Virus record (IMG/VR): IMGVR_UViG_3300027759_003827
Coordinates: 24,817-88,816 of that record
Length of the DNA: 64,000 bases
Reading direction: 5' to 3' (one strand)
From: a virus
The notes under the pieces were generated by a model. That model saw only the letters and a list, made by a program, of their open reading frames with translations. It ran no database searches and had not been told where the DNA came from. The position numbers and the translations under genes are program-made. Shown piece after piece: positions 15,816 to 21,982 of this stretch. Numbering within the stretch: the stretch's first letter is position 1; each line of letters begins with the position of its first letter.

Positions 15816-17066
15816 TTATATGTTTATTTTAGATCCAAGTGCAAATACGTACATCAATGGAATATCAGGATTAGTACTCATATTAACTTTTAAATTAATA
15901 TTTAATTTAAATTTCTTACTAAATCTAATATCTGTTCCAGCACCTGTAAAGAAGGAAACGTTAGCATCGTATGTAGCTTTCTTATCTTGTTGACCGAACA
16001 TTACAGGTGAGGAAATAAGGTATATTTCCGGAGATACTGTTTGTTTTCTACTAACTTGAAAGGGTCTAGTGTAGAAGGCTATGATAGAGGGCGATAACAT
16101 TATCTGAGTACCTGTTAAGATAAGGGAATTTCCACTTAAAGCAAGTCCTGCTACCGCTCCTTTGTTTAGAGGTTTTACAAAGGACCATCCGTAGAATATA
16201 AACTTATTATCCCAATCTGTTACATAAGTTACACTAGTAGAAGTTACTCCAAATACCTTTCCTTTCTTCATTATAATATCAGAAGTGCTTCCTCCAATAA
16301 CTACCTGCTTTAGGTCTGCTCTAACTGAAGTGCTTATTCCGTAACTAAACATACCTTCGTTTAAAGTCTTAGACATATTAACATTGAAGGTAGGTACTAT
16401 CATAGAGCCCATCTGTATTACTGATAAGTCTGCTTTAACGATAGGAGGATTAGCTTTACGTTCTTCTTTTTTCTTTTCTTGTTCTTTCTTCTTATTTTCA
16501 GATTTTTTCTCTGATTTAGATTCAGACTTAGATTCGTTACTTGAACTTTCTGATTTTGTTTCTCTTCCAGAACTCTCCGATGATGAGTTTGATGACGACG
16601 ACTCCCCAGAGGAGGATGAGGATTGGGAAGAAGAGGAGGATGAAGACGAGGTTGAAGAGGATGAGGAAGATATTGAAGTTCCTGATGTAGATACGGCTGC
16701 TGTAGAAGCAGCACTTGAGCTTGCTGCAGATGCTGCTGATGAAGCTGCTTGAGAGGCAGCATTGCTTGCTGCTTGTGCGGCCTGTTGTGCCACAGTTGCT
16801 ACTATTGCTATTGGACATGGTGTTGAGAAGATGTCATTAACCCATTTAGTTACTGTTCCTGATGCAAAGTCGGCATACGTAAAGATTCTAGACTTATTTC
16901 TAATAAGTACTAATACTCCAGGTTGATTAGATGAGATAGGAACTACTACTGTGTAAACTTTGTTATCACAGGGGTCAATGTAGGTTTGAACAATATTCTG
17001 ACCGTTCGCTTTATTAGCGAATATAAACGAAACTGATATTAAGACGGCTAGTATCCATTGTTTCAT
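15816..17066 (-). CDS. exported protein: N-domain, Ala/Ser-rich linker, C-terminal beta-rich (putative outer-membrane barrel) domain
   Basis: signal peptide; poly-Ser and Lys/Glu linker; alternating hydrophobic strands in the last ~200 aa. Confidence 0.65.
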   Translation of the reverse strand: MKQWILAVLISVSFIFANKANGQNIVQTYIDPCDNKVYTVVVPISSNQPGVLVLIRNKSRIFTYADFASGTVTKWVNDIFSTPCPIAIVATVAQQAAQAASNAASQAASSAASAASSSAASTAAVSTSGTSISSSSSSTSSSSSSSSQSSSSSGESSSSNSSSESSGRETKSESSSNESKSESKSEKKSENKKKEQEKKKEERKANPPIVKADLSVIQMGSMIVPTFNVNMSKTLNEGMFSYGISTSVRADLKQVVIGGSTSDIIMKKGKVFGVTSTSVTYVTDWDNKFIFYGWSFVKPLNKGAVAGLALSGNSLILTGTQIMLSPSIIAFYTRPFQVSRKQTVSPEIYLISSPVMFGQQDKKATYDANVSFFTGAGTDIRFSKKFKLNINLKVNMSTNPDIPLMYVFALGSKINI

Positions 17067-17356
17067 TAATTTCTTCTAGAAGGACGAGAAGGTAATTGTC
17101 TTGGTGGAACAAAACGATGAGTTGGCCTTTGAGGTATCCAGCGTTGTGGTTGATATCTAGGTGTAATCCATCTTTGAATTATAATCGGAGTAAACTGTAT
17201 AGGAGCATATTGATAATCGTAAATTACTCTCTGCTTCCTAACTATTGAATCTTGCGGACTAACGAACACATACTGAACTGGGGTGCAGCTAGCTATAAAC
17301 ATTGTTATCCACAGTAGTAATATAAATGCTACACAGATTGAAATTATTTTTTTCAT
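17066..17356 (-). CDS. putative lipoprotein, Pro/Arg-rich tail
   Basis: MKK-hydrophobic-IASC; QRWI-P repeats. Confidence 0.6.
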   Translation of the reverse strand: MKKIISICVAFILLLWITMFIASCTPVQYVFVSPQDSIVRKQRVIYDYQYAPIQFTPIIIQRWITPRYQPQRWIPQRPTHRFVPPRQLPSRPSRRN

Positions 17357-17357
17357 C

Positions 17358-17465
17358 TTACTTTACTTTATTTAAAATTACTTGATTAGCTTTCACTAAT
17401 TCTGCTTTCTTAACGCCAGATTTTTTAGATCTCATTGAACGCTTTTTCTTTGGTGCTGTTCCCAT
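17358..17465 (-). CDS. 35-aa basic peptide (not in ORF track)
   Basis: MGTAPKKKRSMRSKKSGVKKAELVKANQVILNKVK*; fills the gap between neighbours exactly. Confidence 0.65.
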   Translation of the reverse strand: MGTAPKKKRSMRSKKSGVKKAELVKANQVILNKVK

Positions 17466-17468
17466 AAT

Positions 17469-19363: not shown

Positions 19364-21475
19364 TTAGAAGTTGTTATATCCTGTTAATTTAATTTGTACT
19401 CTATTTAAATTAATGCCTAGTTGATTACCGTTGATCGCACTAGCATCCATTGTAGATGAAACATTTATAGATGTTAAAATGTCTACCCCGTTACCTATTG
19501 TTGAGAACTTTAATTTAAATGGAGTAGAAACTCCAGTAATAGCTGTTTTATTATTTTGATCTAAAGCTCCAAACTTAACCTTACCGTTCTTAGCGTTTGC
19601 AAATATAAACCAAGTATTGGGTAGAGTTGATACTAATTCTTCAAACTTAAGCTTAGTTGGATCATATTCGAACTGAAATTGTAAGCCTCCTACGTTAGCT
19701 CCTTTAGTATCAATTGCGACTGGTATTTCTATATTATTAGATGTTATAGTCGTGTTTGTTAAGTTAACATCTATAGCAGTTATATCATAAGGAGTATTAA
19801 TGAAACTCGTATTTGAAATAGACATATTTTTAAATACAGTATTAGTCTGTAAGCTATTCAAAGCATTTGTTTGAACTGTTGAAGTTCCGCTAGTAGAAGT
19901 TACAACTTGAGATGAATGAGATCTGTTTACATCTCCCCATAACAGGTATTTTAGGTTTAAGAAAGCATTTGTACCTAATACATCTGTCTTAAAGTAGGTC
20001 TTAGGATATGTAACAGTACTCCAGTTTGAAGTTGTTATGCTTCCCCAAGATGAATTAGGGTTCATATCAAAAGTAAACTCTGCTCTTAATGCATAATCTA
20101 CACCTCCGTTATTAATATCTCTTATATAGCTTAAATATACAGATGAACCGTCTTTAGCTTTAAGTAAAGTCGAAGGTACTCTATATTGAGCCCATGAAGC
20201 ATCTTCAGATACATACTCAACTGGACCTGTGTATATGTCAAATAATTGAACACTCTTAACTTTGTTAGGAAGAGTTCCTGTTGGAAACTTTCTCATATCG
20301 ATACGTAAAGTACTAAACGTAGTTCCTGGAGTTACATAGCTCCATTCTACCTGTCCGCCTATCGTAGCTACATCTGCTGCTCTCCAAGTAGGTAAGCTCA
20401 TCCAGCCGTTTGTACCTGCTACATATCCTACAGGTATCGTCATTAGAGTATCTAGTCCGGCAACTTGACCTAACAGTCTAGGTAAGTCTCCGCCGTCTAT
20501 TACCCTATTCCTATTAATGTCTGCAGCATACAGAGATTGGCCTGTATTTAAGTTAGTACCTTTAGTTCCGTCTAGTCCCATAGAAGTAAATTCGGCTTGT
20601 GCTGTAGTAAAGTCGGATATTGTAATAGCTGAATTATAAATTTTATAGATGCTGTCTATACTGTACATTAAAGTAACGTCGTATACTTTATTTGCTGCTA
20701 ATAGAGATTGATTAATATCTACAGATCCGTCAGATAACACTGAGAATAGTTGACCTTGGTTTGTAACTGTGTCTCTAAATGATAGCTTTAAATTAGATAA
20801 ATTATATAAATTAGAATTTAAGTCAACTTTTGCGGTTACATACTTACCGAAGTTCTGATTCATATTAATTTGAGTAGACAGTGGACTGTCCATAAATGTT
20901 GGAGCTTGAACACCTTGCGCATCCCATCCAGCAACAAAGTTCAATATAACAGGGTTGAATGAATTTGCTGTTGATGCTACCTTTAATTTAAATCTTACAA
21001 TTAACATTCTATCGTAAGATGTATAAGGCATTGCCGATGTTGTTGCCCAGGTTAAAGTTGCTCTAAGAATTGCATTAGAACCGTTAGCATTATACACGTA
21101 AGTTGCATTGGAAACATACCTCTGTGTACCGTTTGTATAAGTACTATTTCCTGCGTAAGTATAGCTAGGATAGTTTTGCCAAGATAGTTGTATGTTAGAA
21201 CCAGCAGGGAGTATTCCGCCGTTACCGCCAGTACCTGTATGATTAACTGAAACTACTTCAAAGTTTGTCATATCATACTGCAAATCAAACATTAGCTGTC
21301 TTGTAGTTGCATCGCTGTTACCGTTTGCTTGAATTATGACGTCAAACTGATCTCCTCTATTAATAGCACCGCCAGTTGTACTAGCAATAACTCTTGTATC
21401 AGAGAATTTAAATTTAATTTGTCCGAAAGATGTTAATCCTACAAACAGTAGGATAAGTGTCAATAAATGTTTCAT
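19364..21475 (-). CDS. exported cohesin- and dockerin-like domain protein
   Basis: signal peptide; cohesin-like GDQFDVII..FDLQYD and IEIPVAI..GLQFQFEYDPTKLKF; EF-hand dockerin-like ADINRNRVIDGGD and GDVN. Confidence 0.7.
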   Translation of the reverse strand: MKHLLTLILLFVGLTSFGQIKFKFSDTRVIASTTGGAINRGDQFDVIIQANGNSDATTRQLMFDLQYDMTNFEVVSVNHTGTGGNGGILPAGSNIQLSWQNYPSYTYAGNSTYTNGTQRYVSNATYVYNANGSNAILRATLTWATTSAMPYTSYDRMLIVRFKLKVASTANSFNPVILNFVAGWDAQGVQAPTFMDSPLSTQINMNQNFGKYVTAKVDLNSNLYNLSNLKLSFRDTVTNQGQLFSVLSDGSVDINQSLLAANKVYDVTLMYSIDSIYKIYNSAITISDFTTAQAEFTSMGLDGTKGTNLNTGQSLYAADINRNRVIDGGDLPRLLGQVAGLDTLMTIPVGYVAGTNGWMSLPTWRAADVATIGGQVEWSYVTPGTTFSTLRIDMRKFPTGTLPNKVKSVQLFDIYTGPVEYVSEDASWAQYRVPSTLLKAKDGSSVYLSYIRDINNGGVDYALRAEFTFDMNPNSSWGSITTSNWSTVTYPKTYFKTDVLGTNAFLNLKYLLWGDVNRSHSSQVVTSTSGTSTVQTNALNSLQTNTVFKNMSISNTSFINTPYDITAIDVNLTNTTITSNNIEIPVAIDTKGANVGGLQFQFEYDPTKLKFEELVSTLPNTWFIFANAKNGKVKFGALDQNNKTAITGVSTPFKLKFSTIGNGVDILTSINVSSTMDASAINGNQLGINLNRVQIKLTGYNNF

Positions 21476-21478
21476 GTC

Positions 21479-21961
21479 TTAAAATAATTTAGACATAACC
21501 GATACGCATGCTTTTTTTACTGCGTTTCTTTGTACGGTCGAGTTAAACTGACCTCCTTCATTTATTAATAACGTGGATGTACTTATTTCTGAGGATCTAT
21601 CTTCTGTAGTTATAGTCTTTAGTACTTTACCGAATCCGTCAGATAGAGTACCTCTCATCCTTATTACAACTTCACTTTTATCTTGGTGAAAAACAGAAAA
21701 TCCTTGTTTTGTCTGTTCTACATCAAAGAAAAAAATCTCTACATCTACAACATAATCTGCATCAAACTTGTCTACAAGACTAAACCCCTTATCTTGAAGA
21801 GCTTCTTGTAAGACGTTTTTAACGCCAAAAGCTAGGTTTTTATTTCCTGTAAGGGGACCTGCTTTAATATTATTTACTATTGTCCCAAGGGAGGCTTTAG
21901 TTTGAGCCTTTCCTGTAAGACTTAGTAAGAGCGTAACCATAATTAGGAGAAATACCCTCAT
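21479..21961 (-). CDS. exported CsgG/LptE-like alpha/beta protein
   Basis: signal peptide; 'LQEALQDKGFSLVD..ADYVVDVEI' pattern; C-terminal 'AVKKAC' helix. Confidence 0.55.
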   Translation of the reverse strand: MRVFLLIMVTLLLSLTGKAQTKASLGTIVNNIKAGPLTGNKNLAFGVKNVLQEALQDKGFSLVDKFDADYVVDVEIFFFDVEQTKQGFSVFHQDKSEVVIRMRGTLSDGFGKVLKTITTEDRSSEISTSTLLINEGGQFNSTVQRNAVKKACVSVMSKLF

Positions 21962-21974
21962 TTACGGTTTAAAT

Positions 21975-21982
21975 ATAAATAG
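21975..21982 (-). promoter_or_regulatory. putative phage late-promoter motif CTATTTAT
   Basis: same motif precedes sheath, tube, chaperone and tape measure genes. Confidence 0.55.

Follow-up and report, generated by a model that had tools for sequence, protein, structure and literature searches.

A 64,000-nucleotide stretch of viral DNA (the window; positions 24,817 to 88,816 of the IMG/VR record IMGVR_UViG_3300027759_003827) carries at 15816-21982, on the minus strand, a block of ten tightly packed genes, most of which encode proteins with signals for export or membrane insertion. We propose, at a probability of about 45%, that in a virulent myophage of the Flavobacterium type this block is one transcription unit and that its products, once exported, would form a display scaffold in the infected cell's envelope. 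Comparison of related viruses showed that five families of the block, g160, an adhesin (g703 in the window), g103, g240 and g416, constitute a core that is kept in order in 44 to 53 of 53 loci, and a cultured phage, immuto, has this core as well. The same comparisons showed that the adhesin slot is modular and fast-evolving, with cohesin, C-type lectin, PA14 or LCCL heads joined to a conserved dockerin-type repeat and a C-terminal cohesin. The ten genes are the following.

g160, 21479-21961, minus strand: exported protein of 160 amino acids (aa), candidate short and distant CsgG-like paralog, possibly YajG/Lipoprotein_16-like
g703, 19364-21475, minus strand: exported modular adhesin-like protein of 703 aa with a cohesin-like N-terminal domain, a dockerin-type repeat, an inserted domain and a C-terminal cohesin
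g117, 19009-19362, minus strand: small lipoprotein (lipobox LVAC), accessory
g103, 18691-19002, minus strand: bitopic protein with an N-terminal transmembrane (TM) segment and a Gln/Lys/Pro-rich periplasmic tail ending in Trp, core
g80, 18424-18666, minus strand: small membrane protein with two TM segments and a charged C-terminus, holin-like in build, semi-conserved
g73, 18197-18418, minus strand: TM anchor, fused to the g160 domain in relatives
g240, 17469-18191, minus strand: CsgG-superfamily protein by profile, with a signal of the signal peptidase I type and no lipobox, the most conserved gene of the block
g35, 17358-17465, minus strand: Lys-rich, basic protein of 35 aa between g240 and g96
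g96, 17066-17356, minus strand: Pro-rich lipoprotein (lipobox IASC), accessory
g416, 15816-17066, minus strand: exported protein of 416 aa with a head, a Ser-rich stalk and a strand-rich C-terminal domain

The record to which the window belongs is 88.8 kb long and ~54% complete. Nearly all open reading frames (ORFs) of the window lie on the minus strand, and the phage genes found in the record or the window include those for a tail sheath, a DNA polymerase, a DnaB-type helicase, a ribonucleotide reductase and two glycosyltransferases. Nine minus-strand ORFs occupy 15816-21961 (g160, g703, g117, g103, g80, g73, g240, g96 and g416), and the tenth, g35, fills the sole long gap of the block, so that with g35 included the intergenic spacing ranges from -1 to 24 nucleotides. 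The GC content of the block is similar to that of the rest of the window. No strong minus-strand terminator was found within 15816-21982, which fits a single transcription unit. Export signals were called with a script based on hydropathy and lipobox patterns, a heuristic and not SignalP. This script identified N-terminal signal-like segments of the cleavable type in g160, g703, g240 and g416, lipoboxes in g117 and g96, TM segments in g103, g80 and g73, and no export signal in g35. The original prediction had described ten tightly packed genes, nine of them with a signal peptide, lipobox or TM helix and among them two lipoproteins and three small membrane proteins, and the ORF list and the script agree with that description.

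A relative of g240 was confirmed in 498 viral contigs, and 4422 protein clusters match it. The synteny analysis included 53 viral loci with at least 7 kb upstream and at least 2.5 kb downstream of g240, which were searched by single-sequence BLAST at 1e-4 and then with family hidden Markov models (HMMs). BLAST detected the adhesin in 52 of these loci, g103 in 51, g160 in 43, g416 in 42, g80 in 27, g73 in 25, g35 in 17, g117 in 12 and g96 in 6, and the family HMMs gave 53 for the C-terminal part of g416, 49 for its N-terminal part and 44 for g160. The best match of each core family was always on the g240 strand. Upstream of g240 were g103 (51 of 51), the adhesin (51 of 52) and g160 (42 of 43), and g416 was downstream in 38 of 42 loci, overlapping in three and upstream in one. 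The co-conservation of the block on which the original prediction depended is sustained for the five core families and is weaker for g117, g96, g73 and g80. Identity of g240 across relatives is 77-96%, compared with medians of 31-61% for its neighbors and 39% for the adhesins. Among 50,697 phage records searched with g240 by tblastn, the only cultured relatives were the Flavobacterium phages vB_FspM_immuto, which belong to Immutovirus, have genomes of 160 kb and were isolated on Flavobacterium sp. LMO8.

The possibility that the block is a captured host operon was tried and set aside. Of 121 genomes from the genus to which a Flavobacterium metagenome-assembled genome (MAG) belongs, three matched the g240 profile, one through a phage-like contig that carries the same block and the other two weakly (~1e-13), and the C-terminal domain of g416 gave a weak and partial match in 1 of 301 genomes of the phylum. 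Within these 121 genus and 301 phylum genomes the block was not found as a host operon, and nothing beyond phage-like contigs and weak matches turned up; these are samples, and absence is not shown by them.

The exported proteins of the block

The protein g416 can be divided in three regions.

g416 N-terminal head (aa 22-95), 16782-17003, minus strand: near-invariant D31, C33, G70, W75 and P85
g416 linker (aa 96-204), 16455-16781, minus strand: Ala/Ser-rich, then poly-Ser, then Lys/Glu-rich
g416 C-terminal strand-rich domain (aa 205-416), 15819-16454, minus strand: candidate outer-membrane barrel

The head is small and presumably disulfide-bonded through its Cys residues, and it aligned with the N-terminus of immuto gp18 at an hhalign probability of 98.3%. 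The linker was the source of all the spurious matches, which were of low complexity only. The last 212 residues include about a dozen strand-like alternating segments and finish in the motif G-[ST]-[KR]-hydrophobic-x-hydrophobic (Gly at -6, hydrophobic residues at -3 and -1), which is present in 38 of 38 homologs. The last residue of these homologs is L in 31, I in four and F in three, and immuto gp18 ends in ...KLTF. We take this motif to be the beta-signal pattern of outer-membrane proteins. The named ESM clusters nearest to the C-terminal domain were all outer-membrane barrels (0.93), with a low shared count that makes them a lead only. Together these features suggest that g416 may be an outer-membrane barrel on a Ser-rich stalk, autotransporter-like in its build; no Pfam Autotransporter or OMP match was obtained for it. 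The poly-Ser stretch and the strand-like C-terminus noticed originally are present. Regarding the barrel candidate itself, the prediction gained the end motif and the ESM neighbors, and it did not gain a relative in Pfam or among structures.

A barrel of the PorP/SprF type, as found in T9SS (the type IX secretion system), was considered for the C-terminal domain of g416 and rejected, since there was no NCBIfam match and the sole weak match in the 301 phylum genomes, a partial one to a 278-aa OMP-like ORF, lies outside the four PorP places of that genome. On a 254-kb contig binned in an uncultured Bacteroidetes MAG (L086, 8989-13771), the g416-like head and stalk (544 aa) and a barrel-like domain (273 aa) are encoded by separate ORFs, which are followed by a g160-like gene.

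The assignment of g240 to the CsgG superfamily, to which the original prediction had compared it as CsgG/HfaB-like, was confirmed at the level of profiles. When searched alone, g240 had no match in Pfam (E up to 1), NCBIfam, PHROGs or, using phmmer, the PDB sequences; phmmer searches of the PDB sequences with g160, g703 and g416 did not give anything useful either. For the block proteins as a whole, NCBIfam was of no help and the matches in PHROGs were weak or of low complexity. A search of 1.84 billion representatives identified 218 relatives at E up to 0.001. Seventeen of 33 full-length relatives match Pfam CsgG (PF03783; best E 1.9e-17) and six match LpoB, and the family profile found the E. 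coli CsgG structures in the PDB with an E value of 3.3e-6 (3x2r). Alignment of the family with E. coli K-12 CsgG by hhalign gave 95.4% (E 1.8e-8) over 226 columns, covering CsgG residues 5-255, at an identity of 12%. The nearest ESM clusters are CsgG/HfaB at 0.94, and bacterial homologs at 35% identity pass the Pfam CsgG cut-off. These results support membership of g240 in the superfamily. In bacteria, domains of the g240 type are also fused to caspase-type and Ser/Thr-kinase proteins. No product of csgF, csgE or csgA/B was found among the nine block proteins using Pfam (E up to 1) and NCBIfam. We read g240 as a CsgG-derived module that would be periplasmic or associated with the outer membrane and that may or may not form a pore.

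A curli-type neighborhood was sought for the distant homologs of g240 and was not found, because in Ignavibacteriales and Rhodothermales MAGs the adjacent genes are unrelated or of unknown function, with no curli genes. On contigs from MAGs of three groups outside the Bacteroidota, Ignavibacteriales, KSB1 and Rhodothermales (L088, 8977-10280; L089, 787-3591; L090, 4979-7623), a g240-like lipoprotein gene is accompanied, at its side or a little farther off, by another CsgG-like gene. The second protein is the shorter one in Ignavibacteriales and KSB1 (204 and 217 aa) and is the C-terminal part of a 517-aa ORF in Rhodothermales; large proteins with no Pfam match are encoded next to these pairs.

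The block was originally said to contain a second CsgG/LptE-like protein, g160, and this claim could be upheld in part. Against Pfam Lipoprotein_16 (PF03923) g160 scored 21.3 bits, below the cut-off of 25; 20 of 28 relatives match this family (E up to 0.05, best E 2.4e-6), so a distant relationship to YajG/Lipoprotein_16 is possible, and four of the 28 match TraT. The hhalign comparison with E. coli YajG gave 14% (E 0.0019); g160 has no lipobox by the script. A direct CsgG paralogy was rejected, as the hhalign probability was 7.8% for the g240 family and 0.3% for E. coli CsgG. The connection goes through intermediates. g160 matched immuto gp19 at 93.3%, and gp19 matched the g240 family at 78%; g160 also matched, at 62%, a short bacterial CsgG-like paralog. 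This paralog clearly resembles g240, and in its Ignavibacteriales MAG it comes after a g240-like gene. The evidence that g160 is a CsgG-like protein is thus fair but indirect. A gene fusion ties g73 to g160. In relatives, proteins of 214-217 aa have an N-terminal part that matches g73 and a C-terminal part that matches g160, and 21 of 48 ORFs of the g160 family are of this long fused form, with an N-terminal TM anchor equal to g73. In DNA contigs of near-identical strains (runs X2 and X4), g73 is replaced by 498 other letters (joint 18192-18367).

Three domain-like segments were located in g703, consistent with the earlier description of it as cohesin/dockerin-like.

g703 N-terminal cohesin-like stretch (aa 37-79), 21239-21367, minus strand: Pfam Cohesin E 9.6e-5, at 23.0 bits slightly short of the 24.1 cut-off
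g703 dockerin-type Ca-loop and helix repeat (aa 312-340), 20456-20542, minus strand: conserved loop, profile match to dockerins
g703 C-terminal cohesin (aa 580-657), 19505-19738, minus strand: Pfam Cohesin (PF00963) E 6.5e-10, 39.8 bits against the cut-off of 24.1

The C-terminal cohesin fragment alone scored 30.9 bits. In 22 homologs D319 and D330 are invariant and N321 is nearly so, and a second conserved motif (G514, D515, N517, S519, H520 and S521) precedes the last cohesin. The best PDB matches of a profile of the dockerin segment were dockerin modules, with 8ajy_B (the ScaH dockerin) at the top; five of the 14 matches are named dockerin, and four others are short cellulosomal chains that we take to be dockerins.

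The slot that g703 occupies is filled by different proteins in different relatives, and the domains are shuffled among them. Pfam searches of 66 non-redundant ORFs from this slot identified Cohesin in 25, Lectin_C in 18, PA14 in seven, Por_Secre_tail in four, GLEYA in two and LCCL in one. Immuto gp13 is a C-type lectin, and immuto gp15 combines a cohesin with Por_Secre_tail, the sorting domain of T9SS. Flavobacterium has type IX secretion. The T9SS tails on some slot proteins indicate that the cell surface is the target at least in the phages that encode them, immuto included. g703 ends right after its cohesin domain (...TGYNNF), as most slot proteins do. A search for T9SS tails in the window's own record found none, a result of little weight, as the control gave no match either.

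The remaining proteins are small. No family match was found for g117 in Pfam, PHROGs or NCBIfam. Immuto gp16 has the build of g103 and the same terminal W. Homologs of g80 have a median identity of 61%, and no holin family matched g80 in Pfam or PHROGs. The presence of g35 homologs in 17 of the 53 loci (median identity 65%) indicates that g35 is probably a real small gene. A DNA contig of a near-identical strain (run X4) skips 17065-17367, which holds g96.

Possible roles in the infected cell

Single phage genes, for example those for exclusion lipoproteins or O-antigen modifiers, are known to alter the host surface. In the present block this seems to be the work of an entire conserved set of exported proteins. 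According to the scaffold reading, g416 would insert in the outer membrane by its barrel-like C-terminal domain and hold the disulfide-bonded head on its long Ser-rich stalk. Beneath the outer membrane, g240 and g160 would form a conserved platform in contact with a conserved host component; g160 would be membrane-anchored in relatives by the g73 segment, and g103 would be the tie between this assembly and the inner membrane. Through the cohesin and dockerin-type modules of g703, the adhesins could be linked to one another or to the anchor. The infected cell would then likely end up coated with sugar-binding or cohesive proteins, and this coat could hide receptors, both from rival phages and to prevent progeny from being lost, or keep neighboring host cells close.

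Several observations weigh against this scheme. The signal of g240 is of the signal peptidase I type (A-Q before the cut and T after it), and a lipobox is missing from g240 and from 71 of 77 full-length phage relatives; in the other six, the matches to the lipobox pattern place the Cys inside the hydrophobic core and are probably false. Distant homologs of g240 do have a G-C lipobox. At the places in the alignment that we take to be the two amphipathic membrane hairpins of CsgG (in its nonameric ring these form a 36-strand barrel), both regions align, but g240 is shorter by 5 and ~10 (2+8) residues and is acidic or polar, the first region being an acidic run with an invariant Glu. The missing lipobox and the shortened, acidic or polar hairpins make an oligomeric secretion pore rather doubtful, and the part of the original prediction that relied on such a pore is weakened. 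The candidate barrel of g416 (aa 205-416) has no Pfam match at E up to 5, nor do its 38 homologs; profiles of the full-length protein and of the C-terminal domain did not find a barrel among PDB sequences, and the full-length matches were of low complexity only. The dockerin of g703 is a single repeat found at E 2.5e-4, with no Pfam Dockerin match and no clear second repeat. Like 62 of the 66 slot proteins, g703 lacks the T9SS sorting tail (PF18962); the scheme does not account for the passage of such tail-less proteins through the outer membrane, and they may be retained in the periplasm. Four of the ten genes (g117, g96, g73 and g80) are accessory, which does not describe a fixed ten-part machine. 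Finally, the ring, the barrel and all contacts between the proteins are inferred.

A bolder version of the scaffold reading, which we consider unlikely, is that of a cellulosome-like surface organelle. In this version, the CsgG-derived platform (g240 and g160) and g416 would be a phage-encoded outer-membrane route and anchor independent of T9SS, on which cohesin-dockerin adhesins with exchangeable sugar-binding heads would polymerize, and the cell would trap neighboring hosts for the burst or soak up rival phages.

It is also unlikely that the products form an envelope-management set that stays in the periplasm or at the inner face of the outer membrane and acts on the wall or on outer-membrane biogenesis. 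The CsgG/LpoB-like domains would be regulators or decoys, the lectin and cohesin proteins would bind peptidoglycan or periplasmic glycans, and the infected cell would be kept intact or resized until lysis. This explanation agrees with the 62 slot proteins that have a Sec signal alone and no known outer-membrane sorting tail, with the matches of six of 33 g240 homologs to LpoB, and with the shortened, polar hairpins. The bacterial fusions mentioned above join the g240-type domain to the periplasm-facing parts of caspase-type and Ser/Thr-kinase proteins, as expected of a binding module and not of a pore, and the very strong conservation of g240 fits a conserved host target. However, four slot proteins, including immuto gp15, have a T9SS sorting domain, which directs cargo to the outside, and g416 has an end motif of the outer-membrane type. 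Extracellular proteins are where modules such as C-type lectin, PA14, LCCL and cohesin-dockerin typically occur.

The block could also be no machine at all, a quite unlikely alternative in which it is a hot spot of unrelated exported accessory genes (morons) whose shared export signals reflect a shared destination only. Four of the ten genes vary between relatives and near-identical strains, as seen at the joints 17065-17367 and 18192-18367, and the adhesin slot is shuffled; the csgG/csgF cluster of pelagimyophages is also described, in the text of PMC7029224, as lying in a hypervariable region. A heap of morons does not account for five families that keep presence, order and strand in 44 to 53 of the 53 loci and in the distant immuto, nor for the fusion of g73 to g160. 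Moreover, bacteria also have a g240-like gene in tandem with a short paralog.

Less probable still is a lysis or egress module, in which g80 would be the holin, g103 with g96 or g117 a spanin-like pair, and g240, with or without g416, an opener of the outer membrane that sets the time of lysis or completes it, comparable to what was proposed for the CsgGF pore of Melnitz. A role of the phage CsgGF in lysis timing is proposed in the text of Buchholz et al. (PMC9004378). The builds of the small proteins are suggestive, with two TM segments and a charged tail in g80, a bitopic topology in g103 and a Pro-rich lipoprotein in g96. Nonetheless, no holin or spanin family matched in Pfam or PHROGs, and g96, g117 and g80, present in 6, 12 and 27 of the 53 loci, are not core. 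The periplasmic part of g103, ~65 residues of low complexity, is unlike the coiled coils of i-spanins, and no Glucosaminidase or Phage_lysozyme domain, the two families that were searched, was found in the 88.8-kb record, itself ~54% complete. The swappable lectin and cohesin proteins and the T9SS tails would also be left unexplained. That the block encodes proteins of the virion or of its assembly, the cohesin and lectin proteins decorating the capsid or the tail, is very improbable: phage particles commonly bear decoration proteins of the Ig-like and lectin-like kinds and g416 has weak PHROG 'tail fiber' matches, confined to its low-complexity region, but all the large proteins have cleavable signal peptides or T9SS tails and would leave the cytoplasm where virions assemble, and the block is surrounded by nuclease, Fe-S, chaperonin-like and thioredoxin genes, ~37 kb away from the tail sheath gene.

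The block is a common module and could affect the adhesion of infected freshwater Bacteroidota to cells and particles, the competition among phages and the routing of carbon. The block offers a CsgG relative that may have lost its pore, an orphan domain that is a candidate for the outer membrane, and a collection of glycan-binding heads that can be exchanged. The core is present in a cultured pair, phage immuto and Flavobacterium sp. LMO8, and is directly testable there.

Neighboring genes and environmental occurrence

Two features lie at the upstream end of the block.

CTATTTAT word, 21975-21982, minus strand: 14 nucleotides upstream of the g160 start, possible promoter-proximal element
Endonuclease gene, 21993-22646, minus strand: DNA/RNA non-specific endonuclease, Pfam Endonuclease_NS E 7.8e-35

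The CTATTTAT motif that the ten genes were originally said to follow is indeed present upstream of g160, and all six copies in the window are intergenic and on the coding (minus) strand. It is not enriched (6 copies versus 9.8 expected), and one of the copies is the U-tail of a terminator hairpin with a 12-bp stem. With a count below chance and a copy that is a terminator tail, a promoter role is no more than possible. CTATTTAT and TATTTATA were rejected as enriched promoter words, both having counts under those expected by chance (6 versus 9.8 and 9 versus 15.5).

The endonuclease is encoded directly upstream of the block, has a strongly hydrophobic N-terminus and is probably exported. A homolog was found in 24 of the 53 loci, and its immuto counterpart, gp12, is likewise beside the block. 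Farther upstream are IscU- and IscA-like ORFs (by eye) at 22659-23392 and a 545-aa ORF that by eye resembles a GroEL-type chaperonin; the strong terminator-like hairpin, at 23417-23446 on the minus strand, lies just downstream of the latter ORF, and its T-tail is the CTATTTAT copy already mentioned. About 1 kb downstream of the block, at 14502-14974 on the minus strand, there are two small ORFs, one for a lipoprotein of 67 aa (lipobox LTAC) and one of 83 aa that is thioredoxin-like (CGPC motif, by eye), and immuto has a thioredoxin-domain gene at the matching place. Two adjacent glycosyltransferase-like genes (8122-10856, minus strand; phrog_2170, E 5.7e-12 and 8.2e-22) belong to a long run of same-strand ORFs at 30-10856 and may be a second means of altering the host surface.

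The block was detected in 24 listed public freshwater or lake runs from 17 studies, and four of these runs, labeled as freshwater metagenomes, contain half or more of the sampled words; one of the four may be the sample from which the window came. Contigs from a lake metatranscriptome match g240, g73, g80, g103 and g160 with 0 to 4 differences. These contigs place the sequence in an RNA library and are weak evidence of transcription, as carry-over of DNA is possible; the RNA evidence consists of contigs, and the parts not covered in run X7 (most of g703 and g416) have no meaning. A joint of 15902 with 21469 in run X2 was set aside because it has just 21 letters on one side.

Comparison with known systems

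The closest counterpart of the block is the gp12-gp19 region of immuto (MW353175), where a like gene order is kept with an exported endonuclease, lectin and cohesin proteins, the g103-like gp16, the g240-like gp17 (52% identity to g240), the g416-like gp18 and the g160-like gp19. There, three proteins make up the adhesin part, namely a C-type lectin protein, one of 363 aa and a cohesin protein of 243 aa that has a T9SS tail, and g117, g80, g73, g35 and g96 are absent. The g160-like gene of immuto comes after the barrel gene, while in the window g160 heads the block. Apart from domain names, the immuto genes are annotated as hypothetical, and our literature search did not find a paper that discusses gp13-gp19 or the present gene combination.

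Compared with E. coli CsgG (3x2r, 4uv3 and 6l7a), g240 has end-to-end profile homology, and it lacks the lipobox and the curli partners and has short, polar hairpins. The adaptor scaffoldins of cellulosomes resemble g703 in combining a cohesin and a dockerin-type repeat in one exported polypeptide, and the variable heads of the slot are carbohydrate-binding. The dockerins of cellulosomes have two repeats, whereas g703 has one clear repeat, and the block has no enzymes attached, a Gram-negative host and a phage as carrier. For g416, the type Va autotransporter may be a protein that works in a like manner. Both have a signal peptide, an N-terminal passenger, a charged helix-like linker and a strand-rich C-terminal domain of ~210 residues with an end motif of the outer-membrane type; g416 differs in that its passenger is just ~65 residues plus a disordered stalk and in that it has no family match.

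Clusters with csgG and csgF, called 'partial curli', are described in the text of two papers on pelagimyophages (the HTVC008M group) and on the methylophage Melnitz, and the roles proposed there are aggregation ('sibling capture') and lysis timing (PMC7029224, PMC9004378). The likeness to the present block resides in a myophage of an aquatic bacterium, a gene of the CsgG family and, around it, a small group of genes for exported proteins with no counterpart in the host. Those clusters have recognizable CsgG and CsgF, whereas g240 alone misses Pfam CsgG and the block has no match to CsgF, CsgE or CsgA. The text of these papers does not mention cohesin, lectin, T9SS-tail or stalked-barrel genes, and their supplementary tables may list more. 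In the 76-kb Bacteroidetes 'Cryophage', variable genes, one with PA14, have T9SS sorting domains of type A, and the paper suggests that these are variable surface proteins that serve in competition or superinfection exclusion (PMC7468147). Cryophage is a different type of phage, the text of that paper mentions no CsgG-like, cohesin or stalked-barrel partners, and its cargo has the T9SS tails that g703 lacks.

The original statement that no phage system with this make-up had been described thus has to be narrowed, since phage csgG/csgF clusters and phage T9SS cargo are both in print in the text of these three papers, and it stands for the combination. We did not find a prior description of a virus that unites cohesin-dockerin, lectin and CsgG-type parts. 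The block is a new assortment, as far as we found, of kinds that are each known: phage csgG clusters, phage T9SS cargo and cohesin-dockerin scaffolds.

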